Virus record (IMG/VR): IMGVR_UViG_2778261505_000007
Coordinates: 1 to 25,134 of that record
Length of the DNA: 25,134 nt
Source: a virus
Taxonomy: Duplodnaviria; Heunggongvirae; Uroviricota; Caudoviricetes
Reading direction: 5' to 3' (one strand)
This document shows, piece after piece, positions 1-18,070 of this stretch. The notes beneath the pieces are model-generated. The model did no database searches. It was not told where the DNA came from and worked only from the letters and a program-made list of their open reading frames with translations. Made by a program: the position numbers and the translations under genes. The first letter of the stretch is position 1. Each line of letters opens with the position of its first letter.

Positions 1-1251
1 GTGCTTACCGATACAAAATTAAAGAACCTCAAGCCACAGGACAAACTGTACAAAGTTTCCGATCGTGACGGGCTGTATGTAGCTGTGCTTACGTCAGGTA
101 CGGTCTCGTTTCGCTATGACTACCGTATCAACGGTCGCCGCGAAACACTGGTAATCGGGCAGTATGGGCGTGACGGTATCAGCCTGGCAGAAGCGCGAGA
201 AGAACTGATTGCTGCAAAGAAGCTGCTTAAAGCAGGCCAGTCGCCGGCTGCGGCTAAACGTGACGGTATCAAAAAGATTCGTGGTGCCGAGACGTTTGCG
301 GTACATACCGACAGTTATATGAAACACGTCATCCTGGCTGAAAGTACCCGCGCAATGAAGCAGGCAGTGATCGACCGTGACATACTTCCTGTTCTTGGCA
401 ACAAAATGATGACTGAAATTACCACATCGATGGTTCGTGATTTGTGTGACCGGATTGTCGAACGCGGTGGTCGGGCAACAGCAGTACAGGCCAGGGAGAT
501 CATTAGCAGCGTATACCGTCACGCCAATGACCGTGGTCATGGTTTGTTTAATCCTGCGGCTGACATTAAACCTTCGTCTATCGCCATATTTAAACCACGA
601 GAGCGAACACTGACACCAGAAGAAATTGGTCTGTTCTTCCGCACGCTGGATGCCATTGGTGCTATGGGCACTATGAAAATGGCTTTAAAGCTGGTGCTTA
701 TCACTATGGTTCGTAAAGGCGAATTCACCAATGCAACGTGGGACGAAATAGATTTTAAAAAATGGACATGGACAATTCCTTCAGACCGCATGAAGGGAAG
801 CCGGGCGCACGTTATTTACCTGCCAAAACAGGCACAGGATATATTGGTTGGGTTGCAGATGTGCGCTGGTGGAAGTGAATATCTGGTTCCTGGTCGTTAC
901 AATTTCCGGAAGCCATTATCTAATGCCGCACTGAACTCTCTGATCGACAGAACGGTGAAAATAATAAATGAAGATGGTGAGCATATTCAGGGCTTCACCG
1001 TACACGATATGCGCCGTACAGCCAGTACGTTGTTGCATGAGGCTGGTTATCCTTCAGACTGGATTGAAAAGGCTCTGGCACATGAGCAGAAAGGTGTGCG
1101 CGCCGTATATAACAAAGCGGAATACGCCAGACAGCGCGCCTACATGTTGCAGCAGTGGGCCGATATGATTGATTCATGGATTGACGGGGAGCATACGGAT
1201 CTGATTCCGTTCTCCCCGTCGAAGTTTGAGAAGTGGATGGCGGGGGAATAA
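1..1251 (+). CDS. int: Tyrosine recombinase / phage integrase, P4 (IntS)-type
   Basis: 416-aa ORF starting with GTG at nt 1. N-terminal region aligns by eye with IntS-type integrases (MLT..K..K.....Y...D..GLY). C-terminal catalytic signature present (HDMRRT, then Y in VYNKAEY). Confidence 0.9.
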   Translation: MLTDTKLKNLKPQDKLYKVSDRDGLYVAVLTSGTVSFRYDYRINGRRETLVIGQYGRDGISLAEAREELIAAKKLLKAGQSPAAAKRDGIKKIRGAETFAVHTDSYMKHVILAESTRAMKQAVIDRDILPVLGNKMMTEITTSMVRDLCDRIVERGGRATAVQAREIISSVYRHANDRGHGLFNPAADIKPSSIAIFKPRERTLTPEEIGLFFRTLDAIGAMGTMKMALKLVLITMVRKGEFTNATWDEIDFKKWTWTIPSDRMKGSRAHVIYLPKQAQDILVGLQMCAGGSEYLVPGRYNFRKPLSNAALNSLIDRTVKIINEDGEHIQGFTVHDMRRTASTLLHEAGYPSDWIEKALAHEQKGVRAVYNKAEYARQRAYMLQQWADMIDSWIDGEHTDLIPFSPSKFEKWMAGE

Positions 1252-8559: not shown

Positions 8560-9165
8560 ATGGAAAGTAATATCAAAGAGTTAGTTGCCGCCGGGCATGA
8601 GATGGCTTCGGAACTGAAAGCAGAATGTGGTGCCGTTGATATGCGTAGTGTGGCAAAGCTGCTCAGCGATTTGGCAACGCAACTGGAAGTGCAACTGGCG
8701 CGTGCTAATGCGCTGGCGGCGGAGAATGCTCGCTACTCAATGTCAGCAGGGCAAGCAGACCAAAGAATGTCGGAGTCGTGCGCAGTTCGGGAGGCACTTG
8801 GGTTTAATCGGTCAGCTGACGACGTGTCACCATCTGACCTGGTAGATAAAATCAAATCTATCATAGCTGAATGTGATGCTATCCGTAGCGCACACCCTCA
8901 ACCACTTGGCCCTGTAATGGATGCTGCAATCGATGCATTTAATGCAGAGGAGATGCCTGAAACCGGAATGCTTAACGCGTACTTCATCCTGCGTGACAGC
9001 ATCACGGTGCAAACTCCGTCCACTGACGCCTTCCTGGCTGAAGTGCGGGCGCGGGGTGTGGAGATGTTTGCTGCCAGCCTGAAGGTTGTTGGTGGTCAAG
9101 AGCATCCATATTCATCGTTGGCTCACGAGTTCGCAACCCAGCTTCGCAAAGGAGGCAACCAGTGA
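8560..9165 (+). CDS. Hypothetical protein
   Basis: 201-aa ORF with good Shine-Dalgarno (GAGGGTAAAG ATG). No recognisable motif. Confidence 0.5.
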   Translation: MESNIKELVAAGHEMASELKAECGAVDMRSVAKLLSDLATQLEVQLARANALAAENARYSMSAGQADQRMSESCAVREALGFNRSADDVSPSDLVDKIKSIIAECDAIRSAHPQPLGPVMDAAIDAFNAEEMPETGMLNAYFILRDSITVQTPSTDAFLAEVRARGVEMFAASLKVVGGQEHPYSSLAHEFATQLRKGGNQ

Positions 9166-9806
9166 GTAACCGTTTTTACATGATGTGCTTGCGTGAAACT
9201 GTGGGTAATAACGCCTCATTCCATTGCCATAACGGCAATGGTTACAGTTCTGATATCGATCGCGCTCATGTTTACACGCTGGAAGAAGCCCAAAAAGCCT
9301 GGAATTGTGGGCGAGATATCGATCAGCCTGTTTGTGCCGATAGTGTGGATGCAATGGCTGTGTGGCACGTTGATTGCCAGTACATCCCTACAGAAAGCCT
9401 GATTGAGTCAGATTGCACTGCGTATGTGGCCTACAAAAAAGGTAGCTGGAACGGCAACGATGTTTACTGGCTTCAACACGGTGGATTGCCAACAGATGAC
9501 TTCAGTAAAGCGACCATCTTTAGCGTCGCCAACAAAAACGAACCAGGAATAGTTTGGTTGCCATTTTCCATTGCTGATGCAGCAAAGCGCCGGACGTTCA
9601 ATATCAATAACTTTAACCGCAGAACAATGGTTCAGGGCGCAGGTTTGGTCATGCCTGACTGGTTGAAAGAGCAGAACAGAAGAAAGAAGTCGCGAAGCGG
9701 GAAGGTGCGTTGGAATTGTCCGCATTGCGGAAAAATAACCTGGCAGTACAGCCCATATGATTTTGAAGGCTGTAGTGATTACAACTGTGAAGGATGGCGA
9801 GAATGA
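9162..9806 (+). CDS. Hypothetical Cys-rich protein with C-terminal zinc-ribbon-like motif
   Basis: 214-aa ORF with GTG start overlapping the previous stop and AAAGGAGG Shine-Dalgarno. C-terminus WNCPHCGKITWQYSPYDFEGCSDYNCEGW. Confidence 0.5.
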   Translation: MSNRFYMMCLRETVGNNASFHCHNGNGYSSDIDRAHVYTLEEAQKAWNCGRDIDQPVCADSVDAMAVWHVDCQYIPTESLIESDCTAYVAYKKGSWNGNDVYWLQHGGLPTDDFSKATIFSVANKNEPGIVWLPFSIADAAKRRTFNINNFNRRTMVQGAGLVMPDWLKEQNRRKKSRSGKVRWNCPHCGKITWQYSPYDFEGCSDYNCEGWRE

Positions 9807-11436: not shown

Positions 11437-11786
11437 TGGACTATTCACAGTTAAGTGATTTTGAAATTAACAGAATGGTAGGAGACATAATTTTTAAAGG
11501 CCTTTGGGCGTGTAAACCGGAAACATCAGGGAATAACACCAACAAATGGTATTACGGAAATACTGATACAACTTTTGAGCCATTAAACCCTTTACCTGAC
11601 TACTGCAATAATCCATCGGATGCATGGCCTATTATTGTTGATAATAAAATCAGTCTAACCTGCCACCAATCTCGCGGTGAGTGGTCAGCTGTTTTTAATG
11701 CCGAGAACATTTGCTTTCATGCGAATAATCCACTCCGAGCCGCCATGATTGTATTTCTCATGATGCAGGAAAATCAGAATGGCTAA
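11436..11786 (+). CDS. NinX-like (DUF2591-like) protein
   Basis: N-terminus MDYSQLSDFEINRMV resembles the NinX family of lambdoid phages. AGGAGGTG Shine-Dalgarno; ATG overlaps the previous stop (TGATG). Confidence 0.55.
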   Translation: MDYSQLSDFEINRMVGDIIFKGLWACKPETSGNNTNKWYYGNTDTTFEPLNPLPDYCNNPSDAWPIIVDNKISLTCHQSRGEWSAVFNAENICFHANNPLRAAMIVFLMMQENQNG

Positions 11787-12117
11787 ATCAGCATCAGAGC
11801 GCAAAGCCGCTCAGAGAGCCAGACAAGCTGCATCTGGTGTGCGTAAGCTGGAGATTGTGCTTGATGCTCAGGAAATTGAAATGCTGGAGCGTAACTGTGC
11901 CACGCGTCGCCCCGGGCGTGCGCCTTACGAATTTGGGGAGTATATAGCGTTACTGATCCGCCAGGATGATGCACGCGTGCGCGGGCGTATAAAATCGATT
12001 AGCAGAAAACGTTGCGGTAAGTGCGGCGAGAAAGTTCCCGTTAATTCATGCCCGTGTAATGGTGACTCGCAATGCTGGGTGACTAAAGGCTGGCATGAAA
12101 CTAAATTAATAGTGTGA
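11779..12117 (+). CDS. Hypothetical basic protein with putative DNA-binding N-terminus and C-terminal Cys cluster
   Basis: 112-aa ORF; N-terminal basic/helical segment (SERKAAQRARQAASGVRKLEIVLDAQEIEMLER) and C-terminal CGKCGEK...CPCNGDSQC motif. Last gene before the terminator and the terminase genes. Confidence 0.45.
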   Translation: MAKSASERKAAQRARQAASGVRKLEIVLDAQEIEMLERNCATRRPGRAPYEFGEYIALLIRQDDARVRGRIKSISRKRCGKCGEKVPVNSCPCNGDSQCWVTKGWHETKLIV

Positions 12118-12166
12118 CATGTCACGAGTAGATTATGCATGATGAATTTGATGGGTTTTGAATACT

Positions 12167-12193
12167 GCCGCCAACTATGGCGGCTTTATTTTG
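12167..12193 (+). terminator. Rho-independent terminator upstream of the terminase genes
   Basis: Hairpin GCCGCC-AACTAT-GGCGGC followed by TTTATTTTG. Confidence 0.55.
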
Positions 12194-12203
12194 CATGGTA
12201 CTA

Positions 12204-12218
12204 TTACCACAACGGTAA
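12204..12218. promoter_or_regulatory. Operator-like palindrome (TTACC-ACAAC-GGTAA)
   Basis: Perfect site 18 bp upstream of the terminase small subunit ATG. Confidence 0.55.
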
Positions 12219-12221
12219 CAA

Positions 12222-12236
12222 TTACCAGGGTGGTTA
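12222..12236. promoter_or_regulatory. Operator-like palindrome (TTACC-AGGGT-GGTTA, one mismatch)
   Basis: Immediately adjacent second site, overlapping the terminase small subunit Shine-Dalgarno and start. Confidence 0.4.
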
Positions 12237-12832
12237 TGATGCCTGCTGAACCTAAAACCTATAAACGCAAATCAACGCAATTTAAGCCACTAACCGCAAT
12301 GCAGGAGGCTTATTGCCAGTCATACATCAAAACGCCTGAAAACCAGACTCAGGCAGCGATTAACGCAGGATTCTCCCCAAATACAGCGGCAGTTAAAGCC
12401 AGTGTCATGATGCGCGATGAACGCATTCAAAAACGGATTGCCGAGTTGATGGAGGAGCGCAACAAACGAATGCGCGTCAGTGCCGATTACGTTCTCATGC
12501 GCCTGGTGGAGATCGACCAGATGGACGTGATTGATATCCTCAACGACGATGGGAGCCTTAAGCCAATCCGCGAGTGGCCGAAAATCTGGCGCACTACGCT
12601 TAGTGGCTTTGATCTGTCATCGACCATCATGAACATGAACGAGGATTCGATAGAGACAATCCTCAAAAAAATTAAATGGCCTGACAAGGTGAAGAACCTC
12701 GAACTGATTGGTAAGCACGTCGACGTCAACGCATTCAAAGAACGCCTGGATGTTAATGTGAATGTGACAATTGCTGATCGCATAGCGGCAGCCAGGAAGC
12801 GACTCAAAGAACGTCAGGATGGTAATCAGTGA
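12236..12832 (+). CDS. Terminase small subunit
   Basis: Translation has the pattern typical of phage small terminases (LTAMQEAYCQSYIKTPENQTQAAINAGFSPNTAAVKASVMMRDERIQKRIAEL). True start is taken as ATG 12236/12239 because the ORF-track N-terminal extension runs through a terminator. Confidence 0.8.
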   Translation: MMPAEPKTYKRKSTQFKPLTAMQEAYCQSYIKTPENQTQAAINAGFSPNTAAVKASVMMRDERIQKRIAELMEERNKRMRVSADYVLMRLVEIDQMDVIDILNDDGSLKPIREWPKIWRTTLSGFDLSSTIMNMNEDSIETILKKIKWPDKVKNLELIGKHVDVNAFKERLDVNVNVTIADRIAAARKRLKERQDGNQ

Positions 12833-14298
12833 CAGATACAGCGTTATCTCCTGAAGAGCAGTTGATCGAGGATATTGCAGGGTTCACTCACGATCCGCTT
12901 GGCTATGCCCTCTATGCGTTCCCGTGGGGGGAAGAGGGGACTGAACTGGCACATGCTACCGGCCCACGTCAGTGGCAGGCTGATGCGTTCCGAGAGATAC
13001 GTGATCACCTGCAGAATCCAGAGACGCGCTATCAGCCGCTTATGCTGGCACGCGCTTCGGGTCACGGTATTGGTAAATCCGCATTCATCTCAATGCTGAT
13101 CAACTGGGGCATGTCCACTTGCGAGGATTGTAAGGTCGTGGTGACCGCCAACACCGACAACCAGCTACGAACGAAGACCTGGCCGGAAATTATCAAGTGG
13201 TCGAACCTTGCTATCACGAAAGACTGGTTTACCTGTACCGCTACCGCGATGTACAGCAATGACCCTGGGCACGACAAGCGGTGGCGAGCTGACGCAATCC
13301 CCTGGTCTGAGCACAACACTGAGGCATTCGCCGGACTACACAACGAGCGCAAACGCATCATCGTGGTATTCGACGAAGCATCCAACATTGCCGATCTGGT
13401 GTGGGAGGTAGCAGAGGGTGCGCTGACGGACGAAGACACTGAGATTATCTGGGTGGCATTCGGAAACCCTACACGTAACACCGGGCGTTTCCGCGAATGT
13501 TTCCGCAAATATAAACACCGCTGGAAAACTGCGCAGATTGACAGCCGGACGGTGGAAGGCACTAACAAACAGCAGTTGCAGAAATGGGTTGATGACTACG
13601 GGGAAGACAGCGACTTCGTTAAAATCCGTGTGCGCGGCATATTCCCTGATGCATCTGAATTGCAGTTTATCCCTACCGGTCTTACTGATGAGGCAATGAA
13701 ACGGGTGGTAACCGCTGCGCAGGTGGCGCATGCTCCGGTGATAATCGGTGTTGACCCGGCATATTCAGGCGTTGATGACGCGGTGATATACCTGCGGCAG
13801 GGGCTACACAGTAAGGTGCTGTGGACTGGCAACAAGACTACCGACGATCTGATTATGGCGAAGCGTATCGCTGACTTTGAAGACCAGTATCAGGCTGACG
13901 CGGTGTTCATCGACTTCGGTTACGGAACCGGTCTGAAGTCAATCGGTGACGGATGGGGTCGTACATGGCAACTTGTTCCGTTCGGTGGCGCGTCTACTGA
14001 CCCGCAGATGCTCAACAAGCGTGGGGAGATGTTCAATTCATGCAAGACATGGCTGAGGCTGGGCGGCATGCTGGATGACCAGGAAACAGCAGACGACCTG
14101 TCGGCGGCAGAGTACAAAGTTCGAGTGGACGGTAAAATCGTTATCGAACCGAAGGAAGATATCAAGGAGCGGCTTGGGCGTTCGCCGGGTAAAGGCGATG
14201 CGCTACTGCTGACGTTTGCGTTCCCGGTAGCCAAGAAAACTAATGACCCACGGCAGCAGCAGGGCAGGGCTATAACAGACTATGACCCATTTGAATGA
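12829..14298 (+). CDS. Terminase large subunit
   Basis: 489-aa protein with Walker A-like ATPase motif (ARASGHGIGKS), an acidic Walker B-like region (IIVVFDEAS) and a C-terminal nuclease-like region. GTG start overlaps the small subunit stop. Confidence 0.9.
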   Translation: MTDTALSPEEQLIEDIAGFTHDPLGYALYAFPWGEEGTELAHATGPRQWQADAFREIRDHLQNPETRYQPLMLARASGHGIGKSAFISMLINWGMSTCEDCKVVVTANTDNQLRTKTWPEIIKWSNLAITKDWFTCTATAMYSNDPGHDKRWRADAIPWSEHNTEAFAGLHNERKRIIVVFDEASNIADLVWEVAEGALTDEDTEIIWVAFGNPTRNTGRFRECFRKYKHRWKTAQIDSRTVEGTNKQQLQKWVDDYGEDSDFVKIRVRGIFPDASELQFIPTGLTDEAMKRVVTAAQVAHAPVIIGVDPAYSGVDDAVIYLRQGLHSKVLWTGNKTTDDLIMAKRIADFEDQYQADAVFIDFGYGTGLKSIGDGWGRTWQLVPFGGASTDPQMLNKRGEMFNSCKTWLRLGGMLDDQETADDLSAAEYKVRVDGKIVIEPKEDIKERLGRSPGKGDALLLTFAFPVAKKTNDPRQQQGRAITDYDPFE

Positions 14299-14301
14299 TT
14301 T

Positions 14302-15150
14302 TTACTTTTGTGTTTTTGATTTTCTTTGATGGGTGGAATTTAAACCACCATTTATATTTACTAGAGGATTATTCAATAATGTACTGATTTCTGGATTGTT
14401 AATTCCAGTAACGCCAAGTTTCTTTACGGACTCATTAAGGTCTTGTAATGATTTTAGACCTACAAACCCATTAGCAATTGTATTATTTGTTGCCAAAGGA
14501 ATGTTTTTCTTATAGGACTCATATTCGTTTTTTAAATTTTTGTGGGCTTTTTCTAGATTTTCTAGTTTAGATGTTGTTTCATGAATAACCTTAGATAATT
14601 CTAAAATACGAGCTTGTGCTGCGCGCAGTTCTGTCTCCCTCTCTTTCAATTCAGATGTGAGTTGTCCCATTCTGTCTTTTGAAAGAATTATTTCCTCTTT
14701 CATGTCTTGAATGTTTTTTTCAGCGCCTGTTTTTACTTTTTCGTAAGTAATGTCTTTTTTAGCCAGCAATCTCTGTAGCCGTGTTTCACGTTGTATTTTT
14801 CTTGCCTTCCGGTGATTTTCGATTGAGTCATTATTATCAAGAGGCTTTGCTTGCCATACGTTAATGATATTGTTTACCCATGGTAATAGGCAGCAGATAG
14901 TAATTACAGATAAGCATGGATAAAACATAACAGTTTTCCATGTGCTGTTATCTGAGATGTATGAAATTTTATCTATTATATTTGATTTGCTAAAAAATAG
15001 ATAAAGAAGTGATTTCCAGTTGAAGGCGCACCAGGACATAACAAAAGCACCTAGCACAGGGTTTTTAGCTCGATGCACGGCAGTATTGGCAGTAGATAAA
15101 AACAGCTCTTTGAACGATTCGAACATACTAATTACCTTAAAGTTTTTCAT
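14302..15150 (-). CDS. AT-rich gene: membrane-anchored coiled-coil protein of unknown function (about 282 aa)
   Basis: Opposite strand to all flanking late genes and visibly AT-rich. Two hydrophobic segments (PVLGAFVMSWCAFNWKSLLYLFF; TVMFYPCLSVITICCLLPWVNNIINVW) followed by a long charged heptad-like region. Preferred start ATG 15150 (AAGGT Shine-Dalgarno); the longer track ORF to 15222 would translate through a terminator hairpin. Confidence 0.6.
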   Translation of the reverse strand: MKNFKVISMFESFKELFLSTANTAVHRAKNPVLGAFVMSWCAFNWKSLLYLFFSKSNIIDKISYISDNSTWKTVMFYPCLSVITICCLLPWVNNIINVWQAKPLDNNDSIENHRKARKIQRETRLQRLLAKKDITYEKVKTGAEKNIQDMKEEIILSKDRMGQLTSELKERETELRAAQARILELSKVIHETTSKLENLEKAHKNLKNEYESYKKNIPLATNNTIANGFVGLKSLQDLNESVKKLGVTGINNPEISTLLNNPLVNINGGLNSTHQRKSKTQK

Positions 15151-15154
15151 GATT

Positions 15155-15169
15155 ATACCTTTAAGGTAA
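15155..15169. promoter_or_regulatory. Operator-like palindrome (ATACC-TTTAA-GGTAA, one mismatch)
   Basis: Overlaps the Shine-Dalgarno/promoter region of the AT-rich gene. A TTACC half-site also at 15132-15136. Confidence 0.4.
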
Positions 15170-15184
15170 TTTGTGGTCATCAGG

Positions 15185-15209
15185 CAAAAAAATGCCCGGC
15201 GAACCGGGC
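15185..15209 (-). terminator. Rho-independent terminator downstream of the tRNA
   Basis: On the minus strand, hairpin GCCCGG-TTCG-CCGGGC followed by ATTTTTTT. Confidence 0.55.
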
Positions 15210-15372
15210 GAACTGGAAGCAATGAGTTATGCCTTCCGTGGCTGTACGGGTTTACAGCATGAAGTCATCGCAATGGCGTCCTGCTGTAAAAAGGGCGGTG
15301 ATAGTCCTTCAAGGGAAACCATCACCGCCAAGCCCCTGGAACTTCTGGCATCACGGTCCTTAGGCGTGATTC

Positions 15373-17777: not shown

Positions 17778-18070
17778 CAGATTACGAAGATGATCAACTG
17801 AAAGAAGAAAACGCCAGTAAGCAACGTGACATGGCACAGCGTGAAATTGATGACATTCGCTTTGTCATGAGCAGTGAACAGGGGCGTCGCGTTGTCTGGT
17901 CTGTGCTGGAGAAAGGCCGGGTGTTTTCCGCTATCTCACCGATGGACGCTATGGCAATGGCATTTAATGAGGGGCAACGCAATCTGGCGCTGGAACTGTT
18001 TCAGCGCGTTATGGCGCATTGCCCTGAACAGTATTTGAAGATGGCCAAAGAGGCCAGTGAACAGGAGTGA
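17774..18070 (+). CDS. Hypothetical protein (98 aa)
   Basis: ORF with ATG overlapping the portal stop (ATGA). No recognisable motif. Confidence 0.5.
   Translation: MTDYEDDQLKEENASKQRDMAQREIDDIRFVMSSEQGRRVVWSVLEKGRVFSAISPMDAMAMAFNEGQRNLALELFQRVMAHCPEQYLKMAKEASEQE

Follow-up and report, generated by a model that had tools for sequence, protein, structure and literature searches.

A predicted ribbon-helix-helix, zinc-knuckle protein at the early/late junction of an epsilon15-like phage, and the palindrome at its stop codon as its most likely site

The question raised by this locus is whether a small basic protein encoded just before the packaging genes of a temperate phage regulates its late genes, and at which DNA site it would act. 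The window, the whole stretch of 25,134 nucleotides that was analyzed, is from a temperate Uetakevirus (epsilon15/phiV10-like) phage or prophage, as judged by gene content and near-identical DNA: it is 98% identical to phages HEMP4 and vB_EcoP_ZX5 and 92% identical to TL-2011b. Phages of the epsilon15/phiV10 type serve as reporter phages for O157 and Salmonella, and as prophages they are common in Enterobacteriaceae. We know of no account of late-gene control in these phages, and nothing on it was found in the literature searched. The original prediction for this locus was that the 112-aa protein is a zinc-binding late regulator, analogous to Ogr of P2 or C of Mu, with TTACC-N5-GGTAA as its sites. 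The features of the window are listed in Table 1.

Table 1. Features of the junction and of the surrounding genome (window positions unless another phage or locus is named)
Feature	Position	Strand	Remarks
Integrase	1-1251		
RecT/exonuclease operon, leftward	between integrase and repressor gene		
Rep-type operators left of the repressor gene	4966, 5028		
Rep repressor, 193 aa	5100-5684	-	
Rep-type operators right of the repressor gene	5740, 5788, 6125		
Replication genes, then Ea22, DUF551, and NinX accessory genes	after repressor gene, upstream of 112-aa ORF		
Rep-type operators, replication region	8071, 8133		
CDS, 112-aa predicted ribbon-helix-helix (RHH) plus zinc-ribbon protein (epsilon15 gp49/N15 gp46 family, PHROG 536)	11779-12117	+	ATG start; TGA stop
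Arg/Lys-rich N-terminal helix, residues 5-19	11791-11835	+	AF2, alignment, pI 12; R8 and R13 near-invariant family-wide
Predicted RHH core	11839-12003	+	strand ~21-28, helices 30-42 and 52-75
Predicted zinc knuckle, C79-x2-C82-x8-C91-x7-C99	12013-12075	+	invariant columns in three alignments
Perfect 12-bp palindrome GTGACATGTCAC (GTGAC-NN-GTCAC), candidate cognate site	12114-12125	.	overlaps TGA stop of 112-aa ORF
Apparent decayed LexA-box promoter remnant, intact in relatives	12126-12160	+	homology by eye
Intrinsic terminator ending the early-right operon	12167-12193 (hairpin 12167-12184 + T-run)	+	7-bp stem, 6 GC pairs, then TTTATTTT
Two Rep (CI-like) operators, TTACCACAACGGTAA (12204) and TTACCAGGGTGGTTA (12222)	12204-12236	.	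over promoter-like element and terS ribosome-binding site
terS, first packaging/late gene	12239-12832	+	Terminase_2 E 1e-29; phrog_51
terL	12829-14298		followed by portal and head genes
Rep-type operators before the portal cluster	single copies at 15155 and 15772		
Palindrome copies encoding TCDMS, in other phages	ZF40 (L008) 5125; L099 232; L101 3890; L102 4164		

The 112-aa protein and its predicted fold

The ORF was present with exactly the sequence quoted in the original prediction and, as stated there, is the last gene before the terminator, two TTACC-N5-GGTAA sites, and terS. Its ATG overlaps the stop codon of NinX (ATGGCTAA, 11779-11786); therefore, the two are likely to be translationally coupled. 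It is a real gene: a chance reading frame was dismissed because the protein has 599 homologs in Enterobacteriaceae, nearly all of them labelled 'hypothetical', with invariant Cys residues. Among 1.8 billion cluster representatives, only 177 related clusters were found. The protein matched PHROG 536, 'transcriptional regulator', over residues 1-111 of 112 (E 4.4e-54), and tblastn found genes of epsilon15, ZF40, and phiKO2 with the same RefSeq label; epsilon15 gp49, N15 gp46, and ZF40 gp22 are members of the family. Searched by itself against the sequences of Pfam, NCBIfam, and the PDB, the protein gave nothing significant, and the family has no Pfam model. No experimental study of the PHROG 536 family or of the palindrome described below was found in the literature searched, and the vB_EcoP_ZX5 paper does not address the gene.

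The basic N-terminus and the Cys cluster claimed for the protein were both found. Residues 1-23 have a pI of 12 and seven K or R residues, and Cys is present at positions 79, 82, 91, 93, and 99; the whole protein has a pI of 9.7, an additional Cys40, and a His106. Among close relatives C79, C82, C91, and C93 are invariant; in wider alignments of the family the invariant residues are C79, C82, C91, and C99, and C93 is lineage-specific. The zinc ligands would therefore, by conservation, be C79, C82, C91, and C99. Positions conserved throughout the family are R8, R13, E54, L59, and the Cys residues, with R8, R13, and the zinc Cys highest. The upstream 214-aa ORF at 9162-9806 (phrog_2457) has a zinc-ribbon-like motif of its own at the C-terminus, CPHCG...C..YNC.

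Structure prediction, which had been proposed as a check, yielded a confident model with an RHH and a zinc knuckle. The AF2 model built from 58 diverse relatives has a pLDDT of 90.3; an earlier run with 35 close homologs reached a pLDDT of 63 and was left out of the fold search. The model consists of a helix (5-19), an extended segment (21-28), two further helices (30-42 and 52-75), and a short C-terminal knuckle, and thus contains the strand-helix-helix arrangement that defines the RHH superfamily. In the strand, hydrophobic residues L24, I26, and L28 alternate with K23, E25, and V27. The N-terminal helix is, in this model, a probable DNA-contacting arm. The nearest folds were RHH DNA binders, the MatP-matS complex first; Foldseek searches of the PDB and BFVD added nothing but a single RHH protein and a fragment from the family itself. 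Weak scores against RHH profiles were obtained for one or two of the 58 members (RHH_5, 0.013; RepB-RCR_reg, 0.028; RHH_1, 0.071), and there was a weak match to YbfE (NF008671, E 0.05). Given the predicted fold, the conserved Arg-rich N-terminus, and the match to PHROG 536, we take it as very probable that the protein binds DNA sequence-specifically and is of the regulator type.

Two relationships were considered and rejected. The best PDB matches of the family profile were the zinc fingers of TraR, TraR, and YbiI, but kinship with TraR/DksA was not accepted: E values of 0.06-0.08 are too weak, the zf-dskA_traR Pfam family matched none of the 58 members, the protein lacks the acidic DxxDxA tip, and its N-terminus is basic. 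We take the match as a lead rather than as a result. Homology to MatP was rejected as well, because hhalign gave a probability of 0.2 and the protein matches neither PF06303 nor PF17414, both of which are matched by E. coli MatP.

Rep operators upstream of terS

The window contains 11 copies of TTACC-N5-GGTAA, compared to 0.39 expected, and this family of sites flanks the rep gene (Table 1). In the RefSeq record of epsilon15, sites of the form ATTACC-N5-GGTAAT, including one just before terS, are protein_bind features for the 'repressor'. The Rep protein of the window matches PDB entry 5d50, a 'Repressor' of the SPC32H type (E 2e-41). Its recognition-helix stretch, NLVNRW, is identical to that of epsilon15 gp38 at an overall identity of 42%, which fits an operator common to both phages. 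The motif is absent from ZF40, phiKO2, and Vibrio K303, all of which encode homologs of the 112-aa protein and have different immunity regions. These comparisons of sequence and annotation identify the TTACC-N5-GGTAA sites as operators of the Rep repressor rather than sites of the 112-aa protein, and that part of the original prediction has to be withdrawn. Because the sites are Rep operators, an EMSA performed on them would be expected to show Rep, not the 112-aa protein.

Because the operators before terS belong to Rep, this repressor seems, from their placement, to guard late-gene junctions directly, in a manner that recalls 'stoperators'. The first of the two overlaps a weak promoter-like element, TTGCAT-17-GGTAAC, read by eye at 12191-12219, which is a candidate Rep-controlled terS promoter. 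Its geometry recurs as TTGCGT-17-GGTAAT in epsilon15 and TGGCAT-17-GGTAAT in L139.

A palindrome at the stop codon

A perfect palindrome, GTGAC-NN-GTCAC, which the original prediction does not mention, overlaps the stop codon of the 112-aa ORF (Table 1). The motif GTGACATGTCAC is found in the same register at the stop of the homolog in epsilon15, TL-2011b, and ZX5. The ZF40 copy comes 3 nt past the TAA stop, and in phiKO2 the sequence GTGACTGGTCAC is located just after gp45. When one genome was taken per species, with proteins 40-85% identical to the query, 27 of 31 loci had GTGAC-NN-GTCAC on the stop or no more than 5 nt away. It is also present in a subgroup of about 35% identity (the 'FKGD' subgroup), and in the subgroup with a TAG stop it is shifted by 5 nt. 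Close homologs of the L125, L129, and L154 types have no such palindrome. Nor is a comparable one present with the homolog of an Aeromonas phage (30% identity); thus, the association does not cover the whole family.

The arms of the palindrome are invariant, and its central bases are AT, AC, CT, GT, GC, or AG. The 30 nt downstream of the motif are unconserved among 30 non-redundant contexts, which include a terminator followed by terS, a LexA-box promoter with a UmuD-like moron, nin regions of the NinB/Q type, and xis-int. Invariant arms and a free center with no compensatory changes are the pattern of a DNA operator bound by a dimer, not of an RNA stem. The version with a 3-bp spacer, GTGAC-RNY-GTCAC, was not found in the loci examined.

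The palindrome is present in two or three copies per phage genome. There are three each in epsilon15, ZF40, and Vibrio K303, compared to about 0.04 expected per genome, and none in lambda. The window has a single exact copy; at the level of two mismatches its two matches are about what chance would give. A one-mismatch copy, GTGACATGGCAC, lies at 17826-17837 inside a small ORF after the portal gene. Most epsilon15-like prophages have a second copy 2.2-2.6 kb downstream, just after terL and beside a bidirectional terminator. In the window this copy is missing because its place is taken by another reverse-strand ORF. That ORF, at 14302-15222 (-), follows terL and encodes 306 aa; at its position relatives have a short reverse gene, the bidirectional terminator, and the second GTGACATGTCAC copy. 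Other copies coincide with the TGA stop of epsilon15 gp18, where a terminator follows directly, and with the stop of a scaffold-like gene in L101; in Vibrio K303 a copy is located 20 nt before the terS ATG and 3 kb from the homolog gene.

In ZF40, L099, L101, and L102 a copy is embedded in a conserved early-left gene (~107-136 aa), where the codons for the residues TCDMS spell GTGACATGTCAC exactly. Because these codons were kept while the flanking codons diverged, the comparison suggests selection on a DNA site within the coding region. Among loci with more than 10 kb available, three of five such embedded copies had no family ORF in reach.

A scan of IMG/VR for TGTGACATGTCACA returned loci of 2-15 kb, of which about 100 or more are expected to be chance matches by a rough estimate of the size of the collection. 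Twelve of 70 non-redundant sites (17%) were within 40 nt of a terminator-like hairpin, compared to 2.1% of random positions; this 8-fold enrichment (p 2.5e-8) may in part or wholly reflect intergenic placement. In the Yersinia phage vB_YenM_42.18 (L005, 8640-8720), the palindrome and extra GTGAC/GTCAC half-sites within ~80 bp have the look of a multi-site array, and clusters of palindrome and half-sites within ~80 bp are also present in L297 and L257.

Downstream of the palindrome the window differs from many of its relatives. They have a strong LexA-box promoter 6-7 bp past the palindrome, which drives a UmuD-like gene before terS (L139, 3348-3395). Loci of the L127/L139 type have TTGACT-17-TATACT together with TACTGT-N8-ACAGT, whereas the window has a weak GTGACA-18-CATGAT. 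In the L055 type the palindrome is followed by a 69-aa insert ORF and then by the usual terminator and operator. The terminator of the window is supported by RNA folding and by its epsilon15 counterpart, which is annotated as a terminator. A match to the Rfam sRNA rseX at 12106-12191 was rejected: it scored 27.8 bits against a cut-off of 50, was mostly similarity to the terminator, and the rseX locus of K-12 is unrelated.

Taken at the level of sequence, these comparisons demonstrate both the linkage of gene and palindrome and the presence of several sites per genome. The palindrome GTGAC-NN-GTCAC at its own stop is the most likely cognate site of the 112-aa protein. The operator-like sites before terS are reassigned to Rep, and the gp49/gp46 family gains a concrete candidate DNA target.

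Possible action at the junction and comparison with known systems

The reading that we favor, while giving it slightly less than an even chance, is that the protein binds DNA at the stop-codon palindrome and modulates the junction. In this mechanism, the protein, with its Arg-rich helix, dimerizing RHH, and four-Cys zinc knuckle, would be produced at the end of the early-right operon and would bind double-stranded DNA at the palindrome of the junction and, in relatives, at one or two further copies near junctions or terminators. The bound protein would then modulate RNA polymerase leaving the early operon towards the terminator and terS/late genes. We infer both the binding to the palindrome and the effect on transcription across the junction. 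Nearly all RHH proteins act as repressors, and RHH activators are rare. Because RHH proteins are mostly repressors and the sites flank terminators and lie inside early operons, we lean slightly towards a negative role as a roadblock or insulator. Against the palindrome as the site, it can be said that the linkage may reflect a module boundary or the site of another factor, and that a site 3' of the gene is unusual for an autoregulated RHH repressor.

A broader proposal, possible but doubtful, is that gene and palindrome form a portable cassette that sets a matS-like operator at the ends of transcription units and serves as a timing gate for the genes downstream. Its carriers are temperate phages of the podo-, myo-, sipho-, and P2-like types. 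The gate would operate by a site-specific roadblock or by DNA-loaded antitermination, often beside intrinsic terminators; in a second version the protein would mimic MatP and would also touch matS-type biology of the host. If true, the cassette would stand apart from the N, Q, Ogr, and RinA types as a timing device of phages. If the pair gates operon ends, this would account for something conserved in many temperate phage genomes and would provide a small orthogonal DNA-binding part; if it does not, the gene is another accessory regulator of the nin region.

The original prediction of a late regulator is supported as far as DNA-binding regulation goes, by the predicted RHH, the Arg-rich N-terminus, and PHROG 536; a late role is no more than possible. 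A positive late switch would have the protein bind the palindrome, ~40 bp upstream of the terminator at 12167-12193, and either cause Q-like DNA-loaded antitermination or activate the weak Rep-controlled terS promoter, so that late genes await its accumulation. We regard such a switch as unlikely. It fits the position of the gene at the early/late boundary in epsilon15-type phages, as the last early gene before terS in the Uetakevirus type, and neither the epsilon15 record nor the examined stretches of TL-2011b and ZX5 have an annotated Q-like gene. Homologs also precede the lysis/late cluster in K303 and L121, and that of the Aeromonas phage lies 1.2 kb before terS/terL. Many contexts repeat the order gene, site, terminator, the end of epsilon15 gp18 among them; the K303 copy of the palindrome immediately precedes terS; and the weak TraR/DksA-like zinc-finger match would suit contact with RNA polymerase.

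However, the argument from position is weak, because homologs occur in nin-like regions of phages with their own Q, or before xis-int. ZF40 has a 67%-identical homolog and the same palindrome ~1 kb upstream of a Q-like gene and ~9 kb from the terminase genes. The phiKO2/N15 homolog is mid-way in the early operon, in a nin-like region, and the phage has Q; the L096 type likewise has gene and site along with a Q-like antiterminator and away from late genes. Pantoea homologs precede xis-int, and that of a Yersinia P2-like phage is in the early region just after the gpA replication gene. It is because homologs lie far from late operons in Q-bearing phages that the late role is no more firmly stated. 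Furthermore, rightward transcription would reach the post-terL site only after passing the terminator, the spacing between palindrome and terS promoter-like element is not fixed (~100 bp here, ~430 bp in L139), and the rarity of RHH activators counts against a switch of this sign. An early-to-late role, if there is one, would be exerted through the palindrome at 12114-12125.

In a MatP-like architectural role, the protein would bridge or mark two or three dispersed palindromes by means of its zinc domain, for example in a terS-terL loop, and would serve genome organization or interfere with host SMC/MatP rather than control transcription in the classical way. MatP-matS is the top structural neighbor, the site is matS minus one central base, and the sites are few and dispersed, with the second copy after terL in most epsilon15-like prophages; even so, we consider this role quite unlikely.

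It is improbable that the palindrome is instead bound by a factor of the host or by some other factor of the phage, or marks a point of recombination or the edge of a module, and that the protein acts elsewhere, for example on RNA polymerase. The position of the site 3' of the gene, the copies in loci that yielded no family ORF, and the TraR, TraR, and YbiI profiles at the top of the PDB matches would agree with this. The register at the stop codon, however, is kept at 40-85% identity in many contexts, and the TraR-type match (E 0.06) is non-significant, with no zf-dskA_traR match, no acidic tip, and a basic N-terminus.

The N-terminus may resemble an arginine-rich motif such as that of lambda N. 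An N-like antiterminator that binds the nascent GUGA-CNNG-UCAC hairpin through this Arg-rich N-terminus is very improbable: the ZF40 sites are in transcribed junctions of both early operons and a small hairpin is predicted, but this hairpin has only 4-5 bp, its stem bases are invariant without covariation while the 'loop' varies, which is the opposite of the usual protein-bound RNA hairpin, and the RHH fold is predicted with confidence. The zinc activator of the Ogr or Mu C type acting on TTACC-N5-GGTAA, as originally predicted, is hardly tenable. The protein does adjoin these sites and has the Cys cluster and basic N-terminus, but the 11 sites are centered on the rep gene and annotated for the repressor in epsilon15, NLVNRW is identical, ZF40, phiKO2, and K303 lack the motif, and the protein has an RHH fold with no Ogr_Delta or Mor match.

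The favored modulator of the junction can be compared with several known systems. The proteins of the Arc/MetJ/CopG class (P22 Arc, Mnt, CopG, and type II antitoxins) share with the 112-aa protein a like core, a basic arm, small size, and a short palindromic candidate operator. The 112-aa protein differs from them in its extra C-terminal four-Cys knuckle, in having the candidate operator at the 3' end of its gene rather than at a promoter, and in lacking a significant sequence match to the Pfam RHH families.

MatP and matS are the best structural neighbors. The 13-bp E. coli consensus for matS is GTGACATTGTCAC (PMC8669397, PMC3116907). Its GTGAC/GTCAC half-sites are identical to those of the phage palindrome, and both kinds of site are few and dispersed on the replicon; however, the spacer is 2 bp in the phage and 3 bp in matS, and the 112-aa protein lacks the N-terminal four-helix bundle and C-terminal coiled coil of MatP. 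We read the likeness as a similar geometry of DNA recognition, not as membership in the family.

Ogr of P2, Delta of P4, and C and Mor of Mu are likewise small phage proteins; they act at the early-to-late transition, and Ogr binds zinc. The analogy does not extend to the fold: Ogr has a single zinc finger (C-x2-C...C-x4-C, ~72-80 aa) and no RHH, whereas the 112-aa protein has C-x2-C-x8-C-x7-C and an RHH, and it had no Pfam match to the Mor-family or Ogr_Delta profiles at E<=1.

In Gram-positive phages, the genes of the late activators RinA, LtrC, and ArpU are immediately upstream of terS, like the 112-aa gene of the window, and their sites are upstream of the late promoter. The folds are unrelated to that of the 112-aa protein, and gene position is not conserved in the PHROG 536 family. 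For SPC32H and epsilon15 Rep, the same 15-bp palindrome and the match to Rep apply, but they concern a protein other than the 112-aa one.

Lambda Q contains a zinc-binding motif. At the junction, the way in which gene, DNA site, terminator, and late genes follow one another resembles Q-qut-tR'. The differences are that the 112-aa protein had no Pfam or PHROG match to the Q family, that no functional promoter is evident at the palindrome of the window, and that homologs of the protein coexist with Q-like proteins.
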